This document shows, one piece after another, positions 37,040 to 61,991 of a stretch of DNA of 64,000 nucleotides (its first letter is position 1; the number at the start of each line of letters is the position of its first letter). The position numbers and the translations under genes are program-made. The notes beneath the pieces were generated by a model. The model did not search any database, was not told where the DNA came from, and saw nothing but the letters and a program-made list of their open reading frames with translations. The stretch covers positions 1-64,000 of the IMG/VR virus record IMGVR_UViG_3300036893_000049; one strand, 5' to 3'. The stretch comes from a virus.

Positions 37040-37585
37040 ATGAAGCTGTTCATAGGCAACCCCACGACTCAAAATCACGTCTTCCTCTACCGTCTCGCTG
37101 AAAATGCCAAGATCGTTGAGCGGCCAATTCCGGCCGGTAAGCAGATCGACATCGAATGCGACACGCGCGACGAGATTGACAGCATCATCAAACAACACGC
37201 CAGATACGGTTTGATCGATGCGAATGAAGTAACCCGAATCCGCAAATTCCATGGCCTTTGTTACGCGCTCGACAAGCCGATACCGGCCGACAAGCTGAAC
37301 TATTTTCGGGAACACAACACCGGCGAACTGATTGAGCAGGGCCGCGAGTTGCGCCAGATCGCCGCCATCGCGGGAAACGATCTCATGGAGACCGCGTTGC
37401 TGGAAAACGATCGGCACGAACGCGTCGACCGCTTCGATCTCTATATCCAGGAAGATCGGCAGGGTGATAGCCCCTTTCCGCAACTGTCGGATCAGATCAC
37501 GGTGACGAAGAACCCTGATAAGGTGGGGCCGATTTCCGATCCGGTTGCGACACGCACCAAGTCAGGACGACGCAGGGCCGCGTGA
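37040..37585 (+). CDS. virion-associated hypothetical protein
   Basis: synteny after the major capsid gene. Confidence 0.55.
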   Translation: MKLFIGNPTTQNHVFLYRLAENAKIVERPIPAGKQIDIECDTRDEIDSIIKQHARYGLIDANEVTRIRKFHGLCYALDKPIPADKLNYFREHNTGELIEQGRELRQIAAIAGNDLMETALLENDRHERVDRFDLYIQEDRQGDSPFPQLSDQITVTKNPDKVGPISDPVATRTKSGRRRAA

Positions 37586-42893: not shown

Positions 42894-44621
42894 GTGATGC
42901 CGCGCACGGTATTTTCTGTGGATGTGGATCGATCTCAATTCGATTCGTATGTATCCGCATTCAATGACTATCAGGCTCAACTCGGCAAGATGGAGGGATC
43001 GTGGAATGCGGCCAGCAATGCCGCGGTGGGTGCCGAAAGCGCCTCTCTCGGTATGGTCGATACCCTCGCGGCGAGCGCTGCGTCGGCAGTTCTGATTGGG
43101 GATGCTCTGCAACGAACCGAGGCCGCCAGCGGAAGGGCGTCAAACAATTTCGGCAAACTCGCGGAGCATGCCAAGGGAATCGCCTCGTCCCTGCTTTCCG
43201 CGACGGTCAGTCTCGCGAAATGGTCTGTCCTGTCCCTGGGCGCGGGACTTATCGGCGGCGGGGTCGGTCTCTTCGGATTGGACCGTCTCGGGGAGTCGGT
43301 CGCCGCGACGCGCCGGACCTCGCAGGGGCTTGGCATTTCGGCCGGTGAACTACAGGCGTTCAATGTCAATTACGGAACGCGGCTTGGGCTTGGCACGGAT
43401 TTTCTGAATACGGTTCAGGGCGCGCAATCGGACCTCGGCCAACAATGGAAATTCTCTGCCCTTGGTATTCCGCAATCCGAGGTGGGTGGCGACACCGCGA
43501 CCTTGACGACCGATGTAATTCGCCGCGCCCACGCGCTCTGGCAACAGGCTGGACCTCAAGGGCATAACGTTCAATGGATGCAGGCTCATGGTCTTGATGG
43601 GATCATGGGATTCAACCAATGGCAGGCTATCGGCCGTCAGTCAGATAGCGATCTGGACAGGTGGGGCGCTCAATACCGACGCGATGCCGGGACAATGAAT
43701 CCGACCGATCCGACGCAAAAAGCCTGGGTCGAATTTACGACGCAACTTGATCGGGCGGCGAAGCAGATCGAGGCGGTATTTATTACAGGCGCGAGTCCGT
43801 TGCTTCCGGCCCTGGAAACATTCTCAAAATCCATTGAGAAAATGATCGCTAACTTTTTTGGCAATGCGAGCATCGAACAGCATATCAAAAACCTTGGCAA
43901 GGCATTGGAGGGGTTTGGAACCTATCTCGGGTCGGATAAGTTTATTGACGATGTGAAGAAGTTCGCTGATGGAATCAGTTATGCAGTCGATAAGGTCGAG
44001 AATATCTTACGCATTCTTGGCATCATGGCACCAACGGCGGCGCAACAGGCGATGCAGGGGCTGCCCTCGGCTTTCAAGTCGGGAGAGGATACGATCGGCG
44101 GATTGACGTTCCGGCAGACGATTGGGCTCGATCCGAAGCCCGCTGGGTATGATATGGATTTTGGGCCACTCGAACAGAAAGTCGGTCTTCCGCCAGGAGT
44201 ATTGAGGGGCCTTGCGATAACTGAGTCCGGCATGACACCGCATCCTTCTGATCGCTTCGCCGCTGGAGAGTTGCATCGCGGCATGTTCCAAATGTCAGAC
44301 ACCATGCTCGGCCGCTATGGAATCCAAAATCCCTATGATGCGGATCAGGAATCCAAGGCCGCGGCGATTGAGGAAAGCGCCTATCTTCAACGGTTCAATG
44401 GCAACATCGCGGCGGCTATCGCGGCTTGGAATGAAGGTCCTGGCGCGGTTGAATCGCAGATGGAAAAGGCACGGCGGCAGGGCGGTAACTGGCTCGATTA
44501 TGCCGGTAAGGGCGTGCAGAAATATGTCAACGATGTCGCCGGACGCATGAATATCAGTGTCCAGGTCCTAAACCAAACCGGCGCCGCTGTCGCGGTCCTC
44601 TTGAACGGTGCCCGGCAGTGA
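42894..44621 (+). CDS. tape measure protein with C-terminal lytic transglycosylase
   Basis: Ala/Gly-rich helical body; SLT motifs ITESG, GMFQM, AAWNEG. Confidence 0.85.
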   Translation: MMPRTVFSVDVDRSQFDSYVSAFNDYQAQLGKMEGSWNAASNAAVGAESASLGMVDTLAASAASAVLIGDALQRTEAASGRASNNFGKLAEHAKGIASSLLSATVSLAKWSVLSLGAGLIGGGVGLFGLDRLGESVAATRRTSQGLGISAGELQAFNVNYGTRLGLGTDFLNTVQGAQSDLGQQWKFSALGIPQSEVGGDTATLTTDVIRRAHALWQQAGPQGHNVQWMQAHGLDGIMGFNQWQAIGRQSDSDLDRWGAQYRRDAGTMNPTDPTQKAWVEFTTQLDRAAKQIEAVFITGASPLLPALETFSKSIEKMIANFFGNASIEQHIKNLGKALEGFGTYLGSDKFIDDVKKFADGISYAVDKVENILRILGIMAPTAAQQAMQGLPSAFKSGEDTIGGLTFRQTIGLDPKPAGYDMDFGPLEQKVGLPPGVLRGLAITESGMTPHPSDRFAAGELHRGMFQMSDTMLGRYGIQNPYDADQESKAAAIEESAYLQRFNGNIAAAIAAWNEGPGAVESQMEKARRQGGNWLDYAGKGVQKYVNDVAGRMNISVQVLNQTGAAVAVLLNGARQ

Positions 44622-45328
44622 GTGCGTCTATCCTCTCTCCGGTTTTCGCCGCGGCATACGAAATTTCACCGATATTCCTGACCGGCGGCATCGCGGCAAC
44701 GATCGGCTCGGCCGCCGGTTCCGCGTTCGGCGGCAGCATTGGGGCCGGCGTATCATCGGTCATCGGTGGTGCATTGCCACTGATTGCGTTTACCGAGGGG
44801 GTTGATTTTCTCGCGGCGGCCTTGGCCGGCGGTTTGCCATCCTCGCCGTTCGCCCGGTTCACCGTCATCCCCTCAGGAAAACTGATATCACAGCAAATCG
44901 CGCACTATCCGTTTGCCAATCAGGCGGTCGCTGCCAATGCGGTCATTACGGAGCCCCTGACGGTCTCTGTGCGGATGGACTGCCCCGCCGCCGAACCTGG
45001 GGCCTATGTGTCCAAACTGGCCGTTATGACCGCCCTACAGGCCGCGCTGAGTGCTCATAATGCGTCGGGTGGTCTCTATACGGTCCTGACACCGTCCTTC
45101 CCTTACGTCAATCTCATCATGACGGCCTTCACGGATATCTCCGGCAGCGGATCGAACCAGGTGCAATATCAGTGGCAGTTCGACTTTGAACAGCCTCTGG
45201 TAACCCTGGCGGCGGCGCAACAGGCATATTCGTCGCTATTGAACAAGTTCAGCGGCGGGACACAGATCACCGGAATGCCGTCATGGACCGCACCGGGGAA
45301 TGTTGGCCCGGCGGTGCCGGTATCATGA
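44618..45328 (+). CDS. baseplate/tail tube initiator protein
   Basis: YPFANQAVAANA, WQFDFEQPL; synteny. Confidence 0.6.
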   Translation: MSASILSPVFAAAYEISPIFLTGGIAATIGSAAGSAFGGSIGAGVSSVIGGALPLIAFTEGVDFLAAALAGGLPSSPFARFTVIPSGKLISQQIAHYPFANQAVAANAVITEPLTVSVRMDCPAAEPGAYVSKLAVMTALQAALSAHNASGGLYTVLTPSFPYVNLIMTAFTDISGSGSNQVQYQWQFDFEQPLVTLAAAQQAYSSLLNKFSGGTQITGMPSWTAPGNVGPAVPVS

Positions 45329-45597
45329 GCGGATTGATTTCGTTTACGCCAACCAGTACGGCGCCATTTCAGTTCGGCGCCACACTCGACGGGACGAACT
45401 ACACCTGTCAGGTCCGATGGAACGTATCGGCGCAGCGCTGGTATCTTTTCATTTTCGATATCTCGGGATCGGTGGTTCTGACGCGGGCGCTGATCGCGAG
45501 TCCGCCGGGATATGGAATCAATATGATATATGGGTTGTTTCTGACCTCGGTTATGTATTTCTGGGATGCGACGCAGAGTTTTCAGGTGATTCCGTAG
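45325..45597 (+). CDS. baseplate plug-like protein
   Basis: PFQFGATLDG.NY...WNVSAQRWY. Confidence 0.6.
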   Translation: MSGLISFTPTSTAPFQFGATLDGTNYTCQVRWNVSAQRWYLFIFDISGSVVLTRALIASPPGYGINMIYGLFLTSVMYFWDATQSFQVIP

Positions 45598-45605
45598 GAG
45601 GAACG

Positions 45606-45818
45606 ATGGATACGCTTAATCTTAACGATGTGGTTTCTGTGGAACCGGGTGTCTCTGGGAAATCCGTTATGATGATGCTTGTCGAAGTTGAGGCTATTGA
45701 TGGAAAGATCGTGGGGTCTGCACTATCCGCTGGTTATCATATCGATCAATGTGCGTTGCCTGGGCGGCTCATTTATACGATCACGTCTCCAATTGATCGC
45801 GAGAAATGTCCGAAATGA
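45606..45818 (+). CDS. small inserted hypothetical protein
   Basis: AGGAGG Shine-Dalgarno; MDTLNLNDVV... Confidence 0.5.
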   Translation: MDTLNLNDVVSVEPGVSGKSVMMMLVEVEAIDGKIVGSALSAGYHIDQCALPGRLIYTITSPIDREKCPK

Positions 45819-45867
45819 CCCGCTCATGCCACAAGATGTAGTATCGGCGGGGCGTGACAAGCCGGGT

Positions 45868-45896
45868 TTGCAATCCTCAACATTAAGGCATATAAT
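45868..45896 (+). promoter_or_regulatory. strong sigma70 promoter
   Basis: TTGCAA-N17-TATAAT. Confidence 0.8.
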
Positions 45897-45901
45897 AAAT
45901 T

Positions 45902-46036
45902 TGCTTATCCGTCTATCATACCAGAAGAGGCGGTATCTGGTTGTCGGTCCAGGCAGCCCACGCGCGGAGAACGGACCTGATACTCCGCCAGGGCAAGCGT
46001 CCGGTTCAATTCCACGCATAGCCGGATAAGCATTTT
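45902..46036 (+). ncRNA. structured tRNA-like ncRNA candidate
   Basis: closing stem TGCTTATCCG/CGGATAAGCA + TTTT, D-like arm, pseudoknotted arm, T-loop GG-TTCAATT-CC. Confidence 0.65.
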
Positions 46037-47072
46037 GCGTTATTATCTGATCCAAATTTTTCCGCCCGGCTCGGACCCTGGTTCCGCGCCGGTATTCCGG
46101 GAATACACGTCATTTCCAAACGGGCAAAGCGATCCTGGTGCTCTGAATATCGTTTTGGATATCTATCAATACACCTTTGGCGATGCCCTACCATTAAGTG
46201 TCGTGCAAATTTACGGTATAGATATCCGGGATGTTTCCCAGGTCAGCAATTTTACGAACTGCAATATTATGATCTGGGCGGGTTTCCAAAAAGGCTTGCC
46301 ACTCAATAACTCAGCGCAAGCCGGGCTGCTCTTATCAGGCATCATCTGGCAGGCGTTCGGTAATTGGCAGGGCACGGAAATGGTCCTGGATTTCGTGGTC
46401 TCTCCGCCGGGCGCCATCGCGGCACAGAACACGAATTTCTCTTTCAGTTGGACGGCTGGAACCCCGCTTTCTTCCGCTTTGGCGACCACGCTCACGAACG
46501 GTTTCCCGAAAATCAAGCAGAACATCCAGATCAGCCCAAATTTAATTATTGGGCATGACGAGAACGGCGTCTACCAGTCCATGCCGCCATTCGCGCAAAC
46601 CCTGAAATCCCTCACGGCGGCGGCCATCGGTGGCACTTATCCCGGCGTCGATATTATCTGGACGCCAACCCAGATCAATGTGTTCGACGGCACGGCGCAG
46701 CAGACACCGAAACAGATCGCATTTCAGGACCTCATCGGACAGCCGGTGTGGATCGGGCCGCTCACGATACAGTTCATGTGCCCCATGCGCGCCGATATCA
46801 GTGTCGGAACATTCGTCACGATGCCGAAAGCGTCAACCGGAGGCGCATATCCAGCCTATTCTCCTGGTGCCGCCGTTACAACATCAGCCGCGCAACCGCA
46901 GGCACGGCAGAGCAGCATCTTCAACGGAACCTTCAACGTGATCCTCGTGCATCACATGGGCATCTTTCGGCAGCCTGACGGAACAGCATGGGTAACGGTA
47001 TTCAACGCCTATGTGACGACACCGGAGCCCGTTCCGACTGTCACCATTGAATCGTTATCGTTCGGCCCATGA
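46035..47072 (+). CDS. baseplate hub protein
   Basis: 345 aa; FGNWQG, DLIGQPVW, HMGIFRQPDG..W. Confidence 0.7.
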   Translation: MRYYLIQIFPPGSDPGSAPVFREYTSFPNGQSDPGALNIVLDIYQYTFGDALPLSVVQIYGIDIRDVSQVSNFTNCNIMIWAGFQKGLPLNNSAQAGLLLSGIIWQAFGNWQGTEMVLDFVVSPPGAIAAQNTNFSFSWTAGTPLSSALATTLTNGFPKIKQNIQISPNLIIGHDENGVYQSMPPFAQTLKSLTAAAIGGTYPGVDIIWTPTQINVFDGTAQQTPKQIAFQDLIGQPVWIGPLTIQFMCPMRADISVGTFVTMPKASTGGAYPAYSPGAAVTTSAAQPQARQSSIFNGTFNVILVHHMGIFRQPDGTAWVTVFNAYVTTPEPVPTVTIESLSFGP

Positions 47073-47635
47073 ACGGCAATTTTCAGCGTACCCCTATCGG
47101 CGAATCGATTCAACGGATCGCGCGGGAAGGCGTTGGGACGCAGCTACAGCGCGAGGCCAAGGCACTTCCTTGTTCCGTGGTCTCTGTCAACGGCCAATTC
47201 GTTACCGTGAAATTCGAGGTGAACTCTGGAATATTCACGTTGCCGAACATCACGATTCCGATCAATACCAGTGAATACGATTGGATTCCGGTTCAGGTCG
47301 GGGACCTGGGCTACACTCAGGCCGCCGATGTCGCGCTCGCGGCGGTGAGTGGGGTTAGCTCGAATGTCCCCAATCTGGTGCAGGGGATGAACCTGACCTC
47401 TTTGGTGTTCCAACCGATATCCAATATGGCGTGGACGGTCGCGAACTCCAATCAGCGGATTGTGCAGGGTCCATCTGGCGCGGTGATACAGGTAACCGGC
47501 GGCGCGACAAGCCTGACCGTCACATCGAGTGGCATTTTCCTGAAAACAACAAGGCTCAATGTGGCGACGCTTCCAACTTCTCCTGGTGCGGCAGGGGATA
47601 TCTATAACCATTCTGGGACCCTGATGGTATCATGA
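47069..47635 (+). CDS. baseplate spike protein
   Basis: LPCSVVSV...IPVQVGDLG OB-fold pattern. Confidence 0.7.
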   Translation: MNGNFQRTPIGESIQRIAREGVGTQLQREAKALPCSVVSVNGQFVTVKFEVNSGIFTLPNITIPINTSEYDWIPVQVGDLGYTQAADVALAAVSGVSSNVPNLVQGMNLTSLVFQPISNMAWTVANSNQRIVQGPSGAVIQVTGGATSLTVTSSGIFLKTTRLNVATLPTSPGAAGDIYNHSGTLMVS

Positions 47636-47982
47636 GAATCTGGGGAAGAATCCCAGCATCGCCCGGCGCACCGCCGACGATATGGGTTGAGGTCACAACA
47701 GATGCCAATGGTGAGAACGGGAATGTCTATCTGACGAATCTGTGCCAATGCCTGGCACTCAATCTCAATGAAGACCCATTTTTCAGTCAGTACGGAATCC
47801 CGGCGCAACCATCTGTTCTCAGTCAGATATTCCCAGATTACAACACGAATTTAACGCAGCAACAGTTCCAGCAGTATTTCGCGCTTCTGACGATTAAGAA
47901 GCGGTCTTCGCCGACGCCAACATACGACATCACCGCGATTACATTTTCCGGGACCATTCTGACAGCACAGGTGCCGGTATGA
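47632..47982 (+). CDS. baseplate wedge/sheath initiator protein
   Basis: LNLNEDPFF..YGIP. Confidence 0.65.
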   Translation: MRIWGRIPASPGAPPTIWVEVTTDANGENGNVYLTNLCQCLALNLNEDPFFSQYGIPAQPSVLSQIFPDYNTNLTQQQFQQYFALLTIKKRSSPTPTYDITAITFSGTILTAQVPV

Positions 47983-49403
47983 GCGAATCGACGCTTCCTA
48001 ATGTGATGACCCCACTGGGACTCCAGCCGCAGACGCCAGCGCAATTGAACAACCAAATTTATACGGTGGCCTTGTCGCTTTCTCCTGGCCTTACGGTCCT
48101 CCCAGGGACGCTGGTCGCGGATATGGGAGGCACGGCGACTGGCGCCGCTGTCGTGATGGAATATATGCGAGTCGATGTCGTCAATTCCATCTCGCCGCTA
48201 CTCGCGAACCCTTTCCTGCTCTACCAACTCGGAGCGGTTTACGGTGTGCAGCAGGGACAAGGCAGCAATGCTTCGGTTTACGTCGTCTTCACGGGATCGT
48301 CGGCCGGGTTTGTCATCCCAATCGGGTTCACCGTCTCGGACGGATCGAATAATTACACTATTCAGGACGGCGGCATCATCGGGTCGAGTTTGCAAAGCCC
48401 GCCGCTTTTCGCGCTCTGCACGAATTCAAATCAGTTCGCTATTCCCGCCGGATCGGTCACGACGATCAGAACGTCAGTCCCAGGCGGATATACGCTCAGT
48501 GTCACAAATCCCCTCGCGGGGACGCCACTGGAATCGCAACAGACGATCGCCAGTTTCCGGTCCCAGGTCGTACAGGCTGGCCTTGTCGCTTCGGTTGGAA
48601 CGCCCGCTTTTCTGAAGACATTGATTACCAACGTCTCAGGTGTGAATCCATTCCTGGTGTCGGTTGCCTCCGTCCCTGGTACGGGATGGAAAATCATTGT
48701 TGGCGGGTCCGGCGACCCTTATCAGATCGCGAACGCGATCCTACAGGGGGTGGGGTCCGTTGCCTTTTTAACGGGCTCGACCATCGGCGTGGCAAATTTC
48801 ACTGCCGCCGCGAATGGTGTCTGTACAACCACGATCAATCACGGTTATTCGACCGGACAGGCCGTTACGGTTGCTGGTGCCTCGCCGGGTGGATATAATC
48901 AGACCTACGCTTCAATTACGGTCGTGGACGAAAAAACGTTCCAGTCCAACGTAAATACGTCAGGGTATGGTGCATGGACGAGCGGGGGCGTCTGCACGCC
49001 GAACTTCCGAAATCAATCAGTTAGCATCAATGATTATCCTGACACCTATACAATTCCATTTGTTGTTCCGCCCTCCCAGACTGTTGCGATGTCGGTGTCA
49101 TGGAATACGATATCCGTCAATTTTGTCTCCGCGACGGCAGTTGCCTCTTTGGCGGGCGCGGCGCTGGCGAATTATGTGAACAGTCTACCTATTGGTGCGC
49201 CGTTGAATGTTGACGTGATGATCCAGATATTCCAGACCGCCGTTGTTTCGATCCTCCCGGCGGCGCTGATTTCCATCGTGACGTTCTCAGTGACCATCAA
49301 TGGCGTCGCGACCTCTCCCGCTGGCGGAACGGTTCTTGTGTACGGCGACCCTGAGTCCTTCTTCACAACGACCGCGGCTTCAATCGTGGTGACGCAGATA
49401 TGA
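47979..49403 (+). CDS. baseplate J-like wedge protein
   Basis: VVFTG..GFVIPIG, VTNP, GGSGDPYQIANAI. Confidence 0.8.
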   Translation: MSESTLPNVMTPLGLQPQTPAQLNNQIYTVALSLSPGLTVLPGTLVADMGGTATGAAVVMEYMRVDVVNSISPLLANPFLLYQLGAVYGVQQGQGSNASVYVVFTGSSAGFVIPIGFTVSDGSNNYTIQDGGIIGSSLQSPPLFALCTNSNQFAIPAGSVTTIRTSVPGGYTLSVTNPLAGTPLESQQTIASFRSQVVQAGLVASVGTPAFLKTLITNVSGVNPFLVSVASVPGTGWKIIVGGSGDPYQIANAILQGVGSVAFLTGSTIGVANFTAAANGVCTTTINHGYSTGQAVTVAGASPGGYNQTYASITVVDEKTFQSNVNTSGYGAWTSGGVCTPNFRNQSVSINDYPDTYTIPFVVPPSQTVAMSVSWNTISVNFVSATAVASLAGAALANYVNSLPIGAPLNVDVMIQIFQTAVVSILPAALISIVTFSVTINGVATSPAGGTVLVYGDPESFFTTTAASIVVTQI

Positions 49404-50059
49404 GCGAGACACAATACGTCTCCCCCAACGCGGTTTATGATGGAGGCTTAACGTATGTGCCTGGAATACTTCCAGCATATGTTTATCAGGAATATGCTGA
49501 CGACGACAATATCCGAGCGTTTTTCACGTCATATAATAACCTGGCGACGCAATATCTCCTTTGGTTCAGTTCGCTCAACCTGCCGATCTATACCGGCGGC
49601 ATCATCGCGGGTGCGCTGCTTGATTGGGTCGCGCTCGGATTGTATGGGATCATCCGGCCATCGATCACGACGGGCTCTGTGTTTTATGAGGGTGCCACGA
49701 ACACTGTGCCGACAAACGTTGTCGCCACGAACAGCCAGCTTCAAAGTTCGACCGAAGCGTTGCAATCGACCTCGGACGATATCTTCCGCCGCGTTATCAC
49801 TTGGAATTTCTACAAAGGCGATGGATTCGTGTTCAATATGCAGTGGTTGAAACGGCGCGTATTCCGGTTCCTGAATGGTCCGAACGGTGTCTCTCCGGTT
49901 ATAGACCAGACCTATACCGTGAGTTGCACCGTAACAGGAAATACGTTCGCCGTTGTTGTCGCGACCGGAGATGCCGGGACAATCGCGTTACTCAATAATC
50001 TGATCGGTTCCGGCGCCTGCGCGATTCCGTTTCAATATGTAGTGACGGTGGCGACATGA
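49400..50059 (+). CDS. baseplate wedge protein (follows J)
   Basis: GALLDWVA.GLYG, DDIFRRVITW. Confidence 0.7.
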   Translation: MSETQYVSPNAVYDGGLTYVPGILPAYVYQEYADDDNIRAFFTSYNNLATQYLLWFSSLNLPIYTGGIIAGALLDWVALGLYGIIRPSITTGSVFYEGATNTVPTNVVATNSQLQSSTEALQSTSDDIFRRVITWNFYKGDGFVFNMQWLKRRVFRFLNGPNGVSPVIDQTYTVSCTVTGNTFAVVVATGDAGTIALLNNLIGSGACAIPFQYVVTVAT

Positions 50060-51249
50060 TACTCCTTTCCTCGAATGATGCTTCGACGACGCTCGGTGCC
50101 GGGATCAGTTCCAGTACAACCACCATTGTTCTGGCGCCGGGGGGCGGGGGTTTGTTCCCGTCGCCCGCCGCGAACGAATATTTCACACTCACGCTGAACG
50201 ATGCGGCGACGCGAGCGAATTATGAAATCTGCAACTGCACCGCGCGCACGGGCGATAGTCTGACGGTTACGCGCGGCGCGGAGGGCACGACGGCACGCTC
50301 ATGGCTCTTGGGCGACTTCGCTTACAACACGAATACCGCGAACAGTATCGGCACCGCGCGTGCCTATGCCGCTGGAAACACGCCAACGCTCCCGTTCACG
50401 ATTCCCGCCGCGCATCAGGGCGTTGTTCAGTATTGCGGCACCGCGGGCACGATCACGTTGCCAGCCGTTGCCGGGATTCAGGATGGGTTTCTTTGTGCGA
50501 TATGCTGCACGTCGAACGCGGCGACGATCACGGTCAATACGAATTCGGCGACGGTGGTTTTGCCATCTGGCAACGTAACCTCGACGTTTACCCTCACCGC
50601 GCTACAGCAGACTGTTACGCTACAATGGAATGCGGGGGCTTCGCTTTGGTATGGACTAAATAGCAGCGCGGCACCGCCGCCGCCGCCGGTGCCTGGAAGT
50701 TGGGTGATTACCGCAAGTACAACGTTTACCGTTCCCACAGGTGTCGGAACTCTTGAAATTGAATTGTGGGGCGGCGGTAGCGGCGGGGTTGGCGGAACAG
50801 GTGCGGCTGGCAGTGCGGGAGGTTACGCCTGGGGGGTGTACTCGGTGACACCCGGAACAGAATATACCGTATTGATCGGCGCGGGTGGCGCGGGCGTCAC
50901 AGGTGCCAGCGGTAGTTCCTCAGGTGCGGGAGGGGAAACGAGTTTTGGGGGAACGTTAATATACGCAACGGGGGGCCTGTCAGTTGGCCCATCCTCTCTT
51001 GGTATCCCTTCTGAGGGGGGTATGGGCTTTGGTGGGGATCTAAATTTGCCGGGCGGTAGCGGCGGCGATCTATGCAGCACCTTCTTTGTCGCGATTGGCG
51101 GCGCGGCACCCAGAGGCGCGGCGGGGGGGTTTGGTCAACCCGGCCAGACGGCGGGTTATGGTGCGGGAGGAGGCGCGGCTGCTAACCAAACGCTCTTAAT
51201 TGACTACGGGGGCAACGGCGGCGGGGGATTGGTCATCGTCAGATGGTGA
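50056..51249 (+). CDS. tail fibre protein with Gly-rich C-terminal domain
   Basis: SNDASTTL, LTVTRGAEGTTARSW, TFTVPTGV..WGGGSGG, GGGLVIVRW. Confidence 0.75.
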   Translation: MILLSSNDASTTLGAGISSSTTTIVLAPGGGGLFPSPAANEYFTLTLNDAATRANYEICNCTARTGDSLTVTRGAEGTTARSWLLGDFAYNTNTANSIGTARAYAAGNTPTLPFTIPAAHQGVVQYCGTAGTITLPAVAGIQDGFLCAICCTSNAATITVNTNSATVVLPSGNVTSTFTLTALQQTVTLQWNAGASLWYGLNSSAAPPPPPVPGSWVITASTTFTVPTGVGTLEIELWGGGSGGVGGTGAAGSAGGYAWGVYSVTPGTEYTVLIGAGGAGVTGASGSSSGAGGETSFGGTLIYATGGLSVGPSSLGIPSEGGMGFGGDLNLPGGSGGDLCSTFFVAIGGAAPRGAAGGFGQPGQTAGYGAGGGAAANQTLLIDYGGNGGGGLVIVRW

Positions 51250-58424: not shown

Positions 58425-58470
58425 GGGGTGGCGGCCCCCTAAGAATGTGCTATATGTTGAAAGGCCATAG

Positions 58471-58541
58471 GGCGAGCGCAGAGAGTCGAACCCTGGTCTC
58501 GGGGGTACGAGCCCCGCGTCCTACCGCTGAACGACGCTCGC
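58471..58541 (-). tRNA. tRNA-Thr(CGT)
   Basis: cloverleaf: acceptor GCGAGCG/CGCTCGC, D arm GTTC/GGAC, anticodon arm CGGGG-CTCGTAC-CCCCG, T arm CAGGG-TTCGACT-CTCTG; no encoded CCA. Confidence 0.85.
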
Positions 58542-58804: not shown

Positions 58805-59017
58805 ATGCAACAAGCAGACCCTACGCATCCCAAACGTGATGCAGAGTTCACACACATCTCCGGTGGCAACGATAACGACGAGCCTCCGGTCAACGCGGTA
58901 GCGTTCACTGATTTGGCATCAGCGATGGGGATGGATGAGGACGCCTTGTTGCAGAGGTTTGCCGCGATCCTCCGCAAAAGAGAGGGTGGCGAAGATACAA
59001 CCCCGGCGGAAGAGTGA
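58805..59017 (+). CDS. small acidic hypothetical protein
   Basis: 70-aa ORF. Confidence 0.4.
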   Translation: MQQADPTHPKRDAEFTHISGGNDNDEPPVNAVAFTDLASAMGMDEDALLQRFAAILRKREGGEDTTPAEE

Positions 59018-59335
59018 CGCCGATGGACTGGGGTCAACTCCTGGATGGGGATCATCCAGGAGTCGCCAGTTCCGGGTCCTCGCGGAGAGAGCGTCTATCC
59101 CCCGCGCGAGAAACGGAGTCCAGGCGTGTGCGCGCTTGGCCCCACAGGTTCCCTGTGAGTCTGGTAGCACAAGTCTTGGCTCCTATCAAAGGGACTTTTG
59201 GGCTTTTGTGGCGTTTTTGATTCTGAGGTATGTGCCGCGACACTCGGTTGAGACGGCTGCCTTCGCGGTCGATTGGGCGTTTGGTCCACTCGGCTGAATT
59301 ATAGACCCGATCACCTGACCACGCCATACGTCACC
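59014..59335 (+). ncRNA. large structured RNA candidate
   Basis: multiple nested helices found by eye; ends before a terminator. Confidence 0.4.
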
Positions 59336-59545: not shown

Positions 59546-60907
59546 TCAGTCTTTCCAAGGATCATCGATTCCGTCTCCCGCCATCGCCACGGCGAATGGC
59601 CGTAGTGTGTGCAGCACTCGCGTCGAGGCCGCGTGGTGAGCCAGCACTTCCGGCAAACGGCGATAAGCCATCGGACTTTCGTCCAGACCGCCGCCCGCCA
59701 GTAACACGCCGCGATCTTGCAACCACGCCTCCATCTGGGTACGGGTGAACGTGCGAATCGCTTGTTTCCGCCCGAATAATCGCCCGGCACCGTGGACCGT
59801 CGAGTAGAGCGCATCCTTCGCTTCTTGGCAGTCAACACCTTCCAAGATCACAGCGTCATCGCCCATGGAGCCGCCAACAAAGCCCTTTTGGCCGGGGAAG
59901 GCTGGAGTTGCACCTTTTCGAACTACCCAGAGATCACGGCCGTTATGCGTTTCGCGCCACGCGTAATTATGATGGTTGTGAACCATTTCGGTCACTGAGC
60001 CGCCGATGATCTGGCGAACACGTTCAACCACCCATTCACGACCGGCGTAAGAGTACCTTCCGGCCAATTGCATCGCCGCGATATAACGGCGGCCGACTTC
60101 ACTATCTTCATCGACCACGGCGGGTGCAACGTTCATGCCGTCTTTCCCGCCAGCCGCTTTCAGATATCGTGTCGCGCTGGTGTGACCGAAACCGCGAGAA
60201 CCGAAGTGGACGCCGATCCAAACGAAATCGTCTTCATCTCGCATGAGATCGACATAATGGTTGCCTGATCCGACCGTTCCTAGCTGTGCGACGGCTTTTG
60301 AGCGGTATTCACCCATGTCGGATTCGCGCCATGCGTCGCTGTCGTCAAAGAGTTCATGTTCCACGCGCTCCTCATTGGTGCGACCGACGCCGAATGAAAT
60401 AACCTTGCGGACATCTTCAAGGATTGGATGGATACGATCCTGGATATCGGAAAATGGCGTGTCCAGGCGAACGGCCATGTTGCCGCATCCGATATCGAAA
60501 CCGACACCGGAAATGCTGATCTGCTTTTCATAAGCGATCACGCCCCCAACAGGTTGCGCGTAACCAAGATGACCGTCCGCGCAAATCACGCCCTTAACCG
60601 CGTTGCCGATAGCCATGCAGTTTCGCATCTGAGCGATGGTGTTGGGATCGTGATCGCCGAAGATCGTCAGAGGACTGTCGCGGAATCGTTCCTCCTGCGG
60701 GCGCAGATTGACGATGCTGGCCGCGAGGTCCGCTGCCTCCCTGGCGTTTTGCGCCGAACGGGCAGCATCGCGGAAATCGCACCATGCGGGCATACCCCGC
60801 TCACTGCCGGGTTTCGCGACACGCGAATCCGGATCGATGCCTTTAGCCTGGCACATTTCGCGTGCGGCGACTTCCAATGGATCGGCTCGACGTGTTGAAA
60901 CAGACAT
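59546..60907 (-). CDS. rtcB: RNA ligase RtcB
   Basis: ADGHLG..QPVG, GFDIGCG, GTVGSGNHYV, VHFGSRG, HNHHNY, RKGAT, STVHGAGR, DESPMAY motifs. Confidence 0.95.
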   Translation of the reverse strand: MSVSTRRADPLEVAAREMCQAKGIDPDSRVAKPGSERGMPAWCDFRDAARSAQNAREAADLAASIVNLRPQEERFRDSPLTIFGDHDPNTIAQMRNCMAIGNAVKGVICADGHLGYAQPVGGVIAYEKQISISGVGFDIGCGNMAVRLDTPFSDIQDRIHPILEDVRKVISFGVGRTNEERVEHELFDDSDAWRESDMGEYRSKAVAQLGTVGSGNHYVDLMRDEDDFVWIGVHFGSRGFGHTSATRYLKAAGGKDGMNVAPAVVDEDSEVGRRYIAAMQLAGRYSYAGREWVVERVRQIIGGSVTEMVHNHHNYAWRETHNGRDLWVVRKGATPAFPGQKGFVGGSMGDDAVILEGVDCQEAKDALYSTVHGAGRLFGRKQAIRTFTRTQMEAWLQDRGVLLAGGGLDESPMAYRRLPEVLAHHAASTRVLHTLRPFAVAMAGDGIDDPWKD

Positions 60908-60925
60908 AACTCTCTCCTTCTATAA

Positions 60926-61004
60926 GGCATCGCCGCACGGGACTCGAACCCGCCGCCTATCCGTTAGTGGCCACTGTGCAGTTCCGACGTTTGCACACGG
61001 CGAT
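60926..61004 (-). ncRNA. tRNA-like RNA with degenerate anticodon arm
   Basis: acceptor ATCGCCG(T)/(G)CGGCGAT, D arm GTGCA/TGCAC with GG loop, T arm GCGGG-TTCGAGT-CCCGT. Confidence 0.7.
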
Positions 61005-61010
61005 ATGGGA

Positions 61011-61991
61011 TCACAAAATCGCGGTTCGATAAGCATCCTTCACGATAGCGTCGATCACGCCGTGGTCCGGCGTCTCGGGCAGTGCGGATACCTCCTCCTC
61101 TGCTTCTACTCGTTCCAACAAATCCTCGATTTCCTCCGCGACGGCGGCATAGGGCAGTTCGCCTTTCTTGATCGCCAGAATATGCTTGGCGTTCAGCAGT
61201 GGAAAGGTGATATGGCCAGATCGCAACAGTTCCAGAGCCTCGCCGCCAACTCGCACCGCATGAGAAAGCGCCTTCCAATCGACGTTTTCGTTACGTTCGG
61301 CCTGCAACGCGCGGGCGCCATATTCGTCCAGTAGTCGAACATAGATCGCGCGCGTATCCTTCAACGATGTGAAGAACGGTGCCTTACGGTTACAGCATTC
61401 AAGATGCGGGATCGGATCGGGACGGCTTGGATGCGGGATAAATATGATCGCGGTATGATCGAGTTTATGTTCCGCGATGAACGTAGGCAGCGTGTCTGCC
61501 GCGATCTCCAACTTTGCCAGATGCCCGTATTCCATGATGGCCTGGTCAAACCAATTCACGATCTCGCGGGCGGCATGAACGCGCGAGCCTTTGATTCCAT
61601 ATTTGTTTGCCTGAGTTCGGCAATAGCCAATGAAGCTGGCGGCACGACGGCTCAACAACTGATGGCGACAATCCCAGATACGGCCCCAGATCGGATCGGG
61701 ATCGCATGTCATAGCCCATCGTGGCGCAAACAGCATGTCCAGAGCAACGGTCTGCCCTTCTGCCAGCAATGACAAATACCGATGGAGCGCATAAGCCTCC
61801 CGGTCGATATCGCCCGCGACGTTCTTTTCGCCAGTCTGCTTGGGTCGTTTGTCTGTTACCGTCGCTTTAACGCGTTGCAATAGGATCGCGTCCGCGTCTG
61901 GCACAAACACGGTTTTGTAATCCACGTCCGACGCTGGCGTGGACGTGCCGTAGAGGTGCGAGCCAAACTTGATCTCGACAAGGGTTTTCAC
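61011..61991 (-). CDS. Pol-beta family nucleotidyltransferase, RlaP/NrdC.11-like
   Basis: FGSHLYGTSTPASDVDYK, DWKALSHAVR, ILAIKKGEL, SALPETPD. Confidence 0.85.
   Translation of the reverse strand: MKTLVEIKFGSHLYGTSTPASDVDYKTVFVPDADAILLQRVKATVTDKRPKQTGEKNVAGDIDREAYALHRYLSLLAEGQTVALDMLFAPRWAMTCDPDPIWGRIWDCRHQLLSRRAASFIGYCRTQANKYGIKGSRVHAAREIVNWFDQAIMEYGHLAKLEIAADTLPTFIAEHKLDHTAIIFIPHPSRPDPIPHLECCNRKAPFFTSLKDTRAIYVRLLDEYGARALQAERNENVDWKALSHAVRVGGEALELLRSGHITFPLLNAKHILAIKKGELPYAAVAEEIEDLLERVEAEEEVSALPETPDHGVIDAIVKDAYRTAIL

Follow-up and report, generated by a model that had tools for sequence, protein, structure and literature searches.

What does the DNA immediately upstream of the baseplate hub gene of this phage do: does it encode an RNA of its own, or does it serve the translation of the genes around it? 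The window, i.e. the whole stretch of DNA that was analysed, comprises the first 64 kb of an 85,259-bp IMG/VR phage record that has direct terminal repeats and a genome GC content of 58%. Two near-identical contigs of the phage, of 84,950 bp (Logan/ENA) and 1,638 bp (JGI), were also found. The first-pass annotation had read the stretch as a promoter-driven, tRNA-like and pseudoknotted non-coding RNA. It lies on the plus strand in the tail/baseplate operon, with the following genes around it:

42894-44621, plus strand: tape-measure-like protein with an SLT domain
44618-45328, plus strand: phrog_7750 protein
45325-45597, plus strand: baseplate plug gene, 90 amino acids (Pfam Pam3_gp18, 6e-07; phrog_8737, 7.5e-26)
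45606-45818, plus strand: orf70, a small gene of 70 amino acids with a strong ribosome-binding site and five distant homologues
46035-47072, plus strand: baseplate hub gene with a TTG start (phrog_196, 1.2e-27)
47069-51249, plus strand: downstream genes, each with a 4-nt overlap with the preceding gene

Between 44618 and 51249 the genes overlap their predecessors by 4 nt, and the gap between plug and hub interrupts this series. To place the gap we drew on viral and metagenome collections and compared 25 loci with relatives of the hub, at 31-61% identity. Where the junction can be read, as it can in more than 20 related phages, the plug stop touches the hub start, and where the upstream gene is present and recognisable, a plug of 87-91 amino acids ends at or a few bases from the hub start; the plug gene studied here aligns with these genes 5' of the hub. 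The junction reads TGAATG in the closest relative (L017, hub 61% identical), the gap measures 24 nt at locus L012, and the junction is likewise abutting in the cultured relatives Yersinia phage vB_YenM_21.09 and Pantoea phage PdC23. Since plug and hub abut in relatives, the sequence between them is extra DNA, which bears out the original proposal of an insertion in the baseplate operon:

45598-46034, no strand assigned: lineage-specific insertion of 437 nt, from plug stop to hub start, at a junction that is abutting in relatives

The insertion consists of the orf70 gene and a 216-nt stretch with the putative non-coding RNA. It is absent from all hub relatives found in the viral, metagenome and phage collections, and a hub search of genome contigs gave no match. 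The GC content is 0.45-0.52 over 45500-45950, compared with 0.58 for the genome. Judged by these alignments, the stretch in question is the 3' half of a 437-nt insertion that is restricted to one phage lineage. At L017 (1616-2209) a different insertion of about 600 nt is seen one junction upstream, between a 253-aa gene and the plug, and is apparently coding on the minus strand; junctions in the tail/baseplate module seem to be hot spots for extra DNA.

The 5' part of the insertion holds a gene. The ribosome-binding site of orf70, TAGGAGGAACGATG, has an anti-SD energy of -10.2, the source pipelines called the gene in assemblies of the phage, and its five homologues (P0002-P0006), at 36-50% identity, have a clear motif pattern in common. 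We conclude that orf70 is a real gene and encodes a small all-beta protein. It has no Pfam match and no significant PHROG match (best E 0.24), the predicted structure (pLDDT 67, low confidence) gave no Foldseek match in the PDB, and neither orf70 nor its family matched viral contigs or genome contigs. Residues 20-60 match six stretches of P0007 (935 aa) and three of P0008 (473 aa) with E about 5e-4 to 7e-4, which suggests that the orf70 fold may occur as a repeat unit in some large proteins. A 172-aa ORF at 45300-45818, present in the longest-ORF list, is rejected as a frame artefact, as its first part is out-of-frame plug sequence; the IMG call is a 133-aa version of it (P0009), in which out-of-frame plug sequence and the real orf70 are merged. 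The local annotation is thus corrected to a true plug of 90 amino acids and a real 70-aa orphan gene, and the 172-aa ORF is spurious.

The features within and next to the 3' half of the insertion are as follows:

45826-46029, plus strand: bridging ORF67 (P0014), 67 codons, a hypothetical relay that spans the whole putative non-coding RNA
45868-45896, plus strand: sigma-70-like match TTGCAA-17-TATAAT, 10/12, predicted start about 45903
45889-45898, plus strand: outer AU-rich segment including the TATAAT, complementary at 9 of 10 positions to 46040-46049 (hub codons 2-5)
45902-45916, plus strand: 5' arm of a long-range inverted repeat, pair probability about 1
45917-46017, plus strand: GC-rich interior of 101 nt with the putative 'D', 'anticodon/pseudoknot' and 'T' arms, z -0.55
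46018-46032, plus strand: 3' arm of the inverted repeat, hub positions -17 to -3, containing the TAA of the bridging ORF

The inverted repeat is the most distinctive of these. A 10-bp closing stem had been described at 45902-45911/46023-46032; it is present and actually extends over 15 positions (45902-45916/46018-46032), with 14 Watson-Crick pairs and one T·C mismatch. The duplex energy is -17.9 kcal/mol, and the stem forms with a probability of about 1 in the folding ensemble. It is the only repeat of such quality in the whole genome at a span of up to 200 nt, where an analytic estimate gives about 0.5 expected per genome, and none of 3000 dinucleotide shuffles of the gap produced its equal. 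The fold of the whole element reaches a z-score of -2.73 on the plus strand and -3.64 on the minus strand. As the plus strand shows no stronger signal than the minus strand, the signal reflects the inverted repeat and not a strand-specific RNA fold. Outside the stem, the pairing 45889-45898/46040-46049 forms in the minimum free energy (MFE) fold of 45880-46060, with the start codon in an internal loop; taken alone this outer AU-rich pairing contributes only -2.3 kcal/mol.

The earlier observation that the 3' stem lies over the initiation region of the hub holds, with positions -17 to -3 of the start covered. The start itself is well defined. The hub N-terminus aligns from residue 1 with its relatives (MRYY...), and in the closest relative its TTG 46035 is matched by the ATG of the hub; the residue-by-residue alignment of the N-termini shows TTG 46035 to be the true start. 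A Shine-Dalgarno (SD) sequence is missing from the hub (anti-SD energy -3.3). Genes that follow a gap have strong SDs, their anti-SD energies lying between -7 and -11.6 kcal/mol except at 37040 (-4.2), and the SD is weak (-1 to -6 kcal/mol) wherever a gene overlaps the preceding one. Both the hub and ORF67 (+0.1) fall in the overlap-coupled class. Because the hub combines a TTG start, a missing SD and a helix over positions -17 to -3, it looks, from its sequence, as if it depended on ribosomes arriving from upstream.

A frame that could deliver such ribosomes is present. The third plus-strand frame is open from 45676 to the TAA at 46027-46029; within it, the ATG of ORF67 at 45826 lies 7 nt past the orf70 stop, and the TAA precedes the hub TTG by 5 nt. 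An equally tight bridging ORF occurs in 0.7% of dinucleotide shuffles, or in 0.3% if only ATG is accepted as a start. The same spacing on either side of the open frame, of the type seen in coupled genes, would also be expected if ORF67 were an ordinary orphan protein gene for a basic protein of 67 amino acids with a Pro/Gly-rich tail, in which the inverted repeat is incidental or of minor importance, and the GC3 of ORF67 (0.45) resembles that of orf70 (0.44). However, the usual marks of a protein-coding gene, i.e. homologues, frame-specific codon bias and a gene call, are all missing here. No homologue was found in 5.8 billion clustered proteins or in viral contigs, no similarity exists to the C-terminal extension of the orf70 homologue P0004, and the source pipelines did not call ORF67 in the assemblies of the phage. 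The codon score of true frames is 0.36 ± 0.16 and that of wrong frames -0.53 ± 0.24; ORF67, at -0.22, lies well below the former, and none of the frames in this stretch is distinguished by its score. The open frame and its spacing are thus the only gene evidence, and a unique 15-bp repeat inside a short gene would be a coincidence. We therefore consider an ordinary protein gene improbable. The ORF67 data fit a relay ORF whose peptide is unimportant and non-coding sequence equally well.

Two further candidates in this stretch were rejected. For a -1 frameshift joining ORF67 to the hub no slippery heptamer was seen by eye. A 26-codon small ORF inside the element runs from a TTG at 45941, 10 nt past a GAGG, to the TAG at 46019-46021; it is unsupported, and its product is hydrophilic and basic and not toxin-like.

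A minus-strand fold signal that equals or exceeds that of the plus strand, and an interior without structure, would also suit an element at the level of DNA. In this explanation a palindromic element of about 131 bp, either MITE-like or left behind by the recombination through which orf70 came in, would have no function of its own, and promoter-likeness and open frame would be by-products. It has terminal inverted repeats of 15 bp, and its size is that of a typical bacterial MITE. Of the properties by which a MITE is recognised, namely terminal inverted repeats, a target-site duplication and multiple copies, only the repeats are found: no target-site duplication is visible, the element is single copy without similarity to the rest of the genome, and a search of viral contigs for the two arms with their gap returned one match, which is unrelated and AT-rich. 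A relation to IS or TnpB ends in the genome is rejected for the same lack of similarity elsewhere. The explanation also leaves the translation of the hub and the bridging frame, rare as it is among shuffles, without a reason, and we regard it as rather unlikely.

The promoter-like site bears on a different alternative, an independent small RNA. Transcription would start at about 45903, the ends of the transcript would be paired, some termination would occur at the U4 tract, and the product would be a stable RNA, about 131-135 nt long, that acts in trans, for example with a moron-type role in regulation or anti-defence. The near-consensus promoter of the first-pass annotation is there as a motif, with a perfect TATAAT and a 17-nt spacer, and it is notable for its position, as the predicted +1 is the first base of the stem. 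A site of such quality arises anywhere in the gap in 1.4% of shuffles. The uniqueness of the stem, the T's that follow it and the location of the stretch within a horizontally acquired insertion of lower GC also favour a small RNA. Genome-wide, however, sigma-70-like sites occur at chance frequency (5 against 4.2 expected) and are thus not enriched. In addition, the -10 hexamer shows complementarity to the codons for the conserved Arg-Tyr-Tyr of the hub, which provides a non-promoter reason for a TATAAT at this position. The other two plus-strand sites with 10/12 matches or better lie past the window, at genome positions 64894-64921 and 75001-75028; they end directly 5' of plus-strand ORFs (64921-66174 and 75035-75295, respectively) and may be real promoters.

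The TTTT that had been noted after the stem is found at 46033-46036, but its last two T's belong to the hub start codon. An intrinsic (Rho-independent) terminator, for which we required five or more T's among the 8 nt after a compact GC-rich hairpin whose loop measures 3-8 nt, is rejected, given a 'loop' of 101 nt and only four T's; the terminator scan made no call at this site. A small RNA is further disfavoured by an interior that is unstructured relative to shuffles, by a fold signal that is not strand-specific and by the lack of an Rfam family or homologue (see below), and it gives no reason for the bridging frame or for a hub start that is without an SD and buried in a helix. We regard an independent small RNA as unlikely, if still worth serious consideration. 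Firing of the promoter and a role in cis could be compatible, so that the two models do not exclude each other.

The tRNA-like and pseudoknotted character of the RNA was attributed to the interior. The quoted motif positions are correct (ACCAGA/TCTGGT at 45920-45941, GG-TTCAATT-CC at 46003-46013, TTG at 46035), and the lower pairs and bulge of the GGTCC/GGACC stem as well as the complementarities GCGGAG:CTCCGC and GCCC:GGGC are present. As structure, the pseudoknot and the D and T arms do not rise above chance level. With a z-score of -0.55, the interior is no more stable than expected, as 49 of 200 shuffles are equally stable. When the ensemble is computed without pseudoknots, none of the D-like, T-like and pseudoknot helices exceeds a probability of 6%, the GGTCC/GGACC arm has a probability of about 0, and other hairpins are favoured. 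By our estimate 6-bp helices are expected by chance in 101 nt of such composition, and the T-loop consensus GTTCAATTC is mildly unusual, with about 1% expected by chance in the same length. A fold in which the D-like and T-like hairpins are forced, with the pseudoknot helix drawn as a hairpin, has an energy of -49.5 compared with -51.3 for the MFE fold, i.e. within 2 kcal/mol. In these folding models a cloverleaf fold of the interior is conceivable but unsupported.

Family searches lead to the same picture. Rfam searches of the 64 kb, of 3 kb and of 156 nt, at gathering thresholds and with E up to 10, recovered no real family for the element; the matches to HOXB13-AS1_2 and mcrA are on the minus strand and at chance level. 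In the 156-nt search the tRNA clan, tmRNA and YrlA were unmatched at E up to 10, while an equally lax control search detects another tRNA-shaped element of the phage (60929-61004). With default settings ARAGORN reports only a tRNA-Thr (58470-58541) and nothing on the element, and its tmRNA and intron modes gave nothing credible; a 'tRNA-Asp' on 45910-46025 is poor and appears only at a 70% threshold with a 40-nt intron. A canonical cloverleaf, with a 7-bp acceptor, a 5-bp T stem and a 5-bp anticodon stem with a 7-nt loop, does not describe the element, whose closing stem has 15 positions, whose T stem has 2+4 bp with a CC bulge and whose 'anticodon' loop has 22 nt. The homologue search proposed with the original annotation found no relative of the RNA in the collections searched, whether by DNA, pattern, translated or context searches. 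The blastn search against phages and plasmids was without match, as was a scan of viral contigs for the 19-mer pattern of the T arm. A gapped pattern of D-loop and T-loop hit four viral contigs, all of them in one unrelated tape-measure gene. The evidence for an RNA gene is, in consequence of these searches, that of a single sequence.

The phage carries RNA-repair genes at another locus, which is relevant for a tRNA mimic:

58470-58541, minus strand: tRNA-Thr(CGT), ARAGORN
59245-59296, plus strand: DUF3800-VI RNA motif, 50.3 bits, above gathering
59546-60907, minus strand: RtcB ligase (PF01139, 1e-63)
60929-61004, minus strand: tRNA-shaped element between RlaP and RtcB (tRNA-Sec model, 19.7 bits, E 0.07, below threshold)
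61011-61991, minus strand: RlaP nucleotidyltransferase (PF10127, 2.5e-14)

The RNA-repair cluster spans 59546-61991 on the minus strand and is adjoined by the tRNA-Thr and the DUF3800-VI motif; the tRNA-shaped element within it has a canonical T arm. A DUF3800 gene was not found 3' of the DUF3800-VI motif, and the ORF that overlaps the motif (58935-59297) has no Pfam match. With RtcB, RlaP, a tRNA-Thr and a second tRNA-shaped element in the genome, the element could be imagined as a tRNA mimic or decoy, a cloverleaf folded into an L, with a lengthened acceptor stem, AG..GGTA as its D-loop and the T-loop given above. It would act on tRNA-recognising enzymes or host anticodon nucleases alongside the RNA-repair genes of the phage. 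In our reading the T-loop agrees with G53-T54-Psi55-C56-R57-A58-N-N-C61, with the T arm stacked immediately on the closing stem, and the near-optimal energy of the forced cloverleaf-type fold is in line with this. Against it stand the missing matches to the tRNA clan, tmRNA and YrlA together with the silence of ARAGORN at default settings, the chance-level arms, the large 'anticodon' loop and bulged T stem, and the chance expectation of about 1% estimated for a 9-nt T-loop motif alone in 101 nt. Moreover, no TROVE/Ro gene was found in the 85-kb genome by a search that gave matches in control genomes, which makes a YrlA-type Y RNA unlikely. We consider a tRNA mimic very improbable. The fuller version, in which a promoter-driven RNA of about 131 nt with a tRNA-type elbow and a lengthened acceptor-like stem serves as decoy or cofactor in a tRNA-centred conflict between phage and host, is just as doubtful; if true, it would be the first of a class of phage tRNA mimics not described before. 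As a small RNA or a tRNA mimic alike, the element would count as an orphan RNA of a phage whose genome visibly invests in RNA repair.

A cis regulator was also among the options named at the outset, and it has become the leading reading, in place of the tRNA mimic listed beside it, which the missing tRNA-clan match disfavours. We tentatively favour a cis-acting translational-coupling helix with a relay ORF, both on the late polycistronic mRNA. Judged by the plug stop touching the hub start, the two genes are translationally coupled in the relatives. In the phage studied here the chain would run from the plug to orf70, which has its own SD, then to ORF67 as a relay and on to the hub. Ribosomes would complete orf70 and restart 7 nt further on at ORF67 (45826-46029). 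In crossing ORF67 they would melt the helix 45902-45916/46018-46032, which would otherwise bury the hub start and which is prolonged by the weak AU-rich extension on hub codons 2-5. Termination would take place at the TAA within the 3' arm, and re-initiation 5 nt on, at the hub TTG. The coupling chain broken by the insertion would thereby be restored. The sigma-70-like site may fire as well and give a structured, hub-silent RNA, which the model does not require. We infer that the helix forms in living cells, that ribosomes translate ORF67 and that the hub needs both for its expression.

The features by which such coupling is recognised in a sequence are all found here: a short distance from stop to start, a weak or absent SD and a start placed in a structure that the upstream ORF traverses. 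Besides the missing homologue, gene call and codon signal of ORF67, two observations count against the coupling helix. The promoter-like site at the first base of the stem is unneeded and would in part be a coincidence, and the 101-nt spacer between the arms is unexplained. If the coupling helix is real, it shows how a phage tolerates foreign DNA in a tightly coupled structural operon, with a relay frame and a start-occluding helix re-creating the coupling. This would help to annotate "non-coding gaps" in tail modules and to engineer phage operons.

How does the locus compare with known systems? Phage morons are extra DNA between genes that are adjacent in relatives, often with their own promoter and terminator, as known from work on HK97 and HK022. 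The locus resembles them in being an exact insertion of lower GC between genes that abut in relatives, with a small gene of no assigned function and a sigma-70-like site. In contrast to a moron, the promoter-like site lies 3' of the inserted gene, with none 5' of orf70, and a canonical terminator is missing; the inserted gene, which reads with the late operon, is preceded by a strong ribosome-binding site. Thus the position between genes adjacent in relatives agrees with a moron, while an own upstream promoter and downstream terminator are not found.

Bacterial MITE-type palindromic elements include the Correia, ERIC and Rickettsia palindromic elements. With these the stretch shares a size of about 130 bp, terminal inverted repeats and a position inside an operon, and also the possibility of ORF read-through and of promoter-like sequence. 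It differs from them in being single copy, without a target duplication and with no other copy in the collections searched.

The likeness to tRNA and tRNA-like RNAs (RF00005, CL00001) consists of the T-loop-like GTTCAATTC, the D-loop-like AG..GGTA and a four-way junction that can be drawn; the differences are the lack of a covariance-model match at the thresholds tried and arms at chance level. YrlA is brought to mind by RtcB, which the phage carries as do rsr-yrlA-rtcBA loci, but the phage is without a Ro/TROVE gene. In YrlA Y RNAs, moreover, the end-to-end stem replaces the anticodon arm (PMC4201824), whereas here it stands in place of the acceptor stem.

The closest parallels to the coupling helix are found where translation of an upstream frame opens an RNA structure. 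Coupling by RNA unfolding and re-initiation is described for genes VII and IX of phage f1, where a long hairpin ends just 5' of gene IX (PMC12548453), and translation of the intergenic small ORF mgtQ opens the structure around the mgtB start (PMC8092293). As in these two cases, the downstream start would here be buried in a helix and is without a usable SD, and the upstream ORF crosses the helix and ends a few nt before the start; a further likeness is that overlaps of 4 nt link the other genes of the operon. The differences are that the arms lie 101 nt apart here and that the coupling is predicted from sequence, that the relay ORF, at 67 codons, is long and its peptide bears no mark of selection, and that the arrangement occurs in one phage lineage, created by an insertion. 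No new kind of system is required to account for the locus, as moron-type insertions and structure-mediated coupling are both known.
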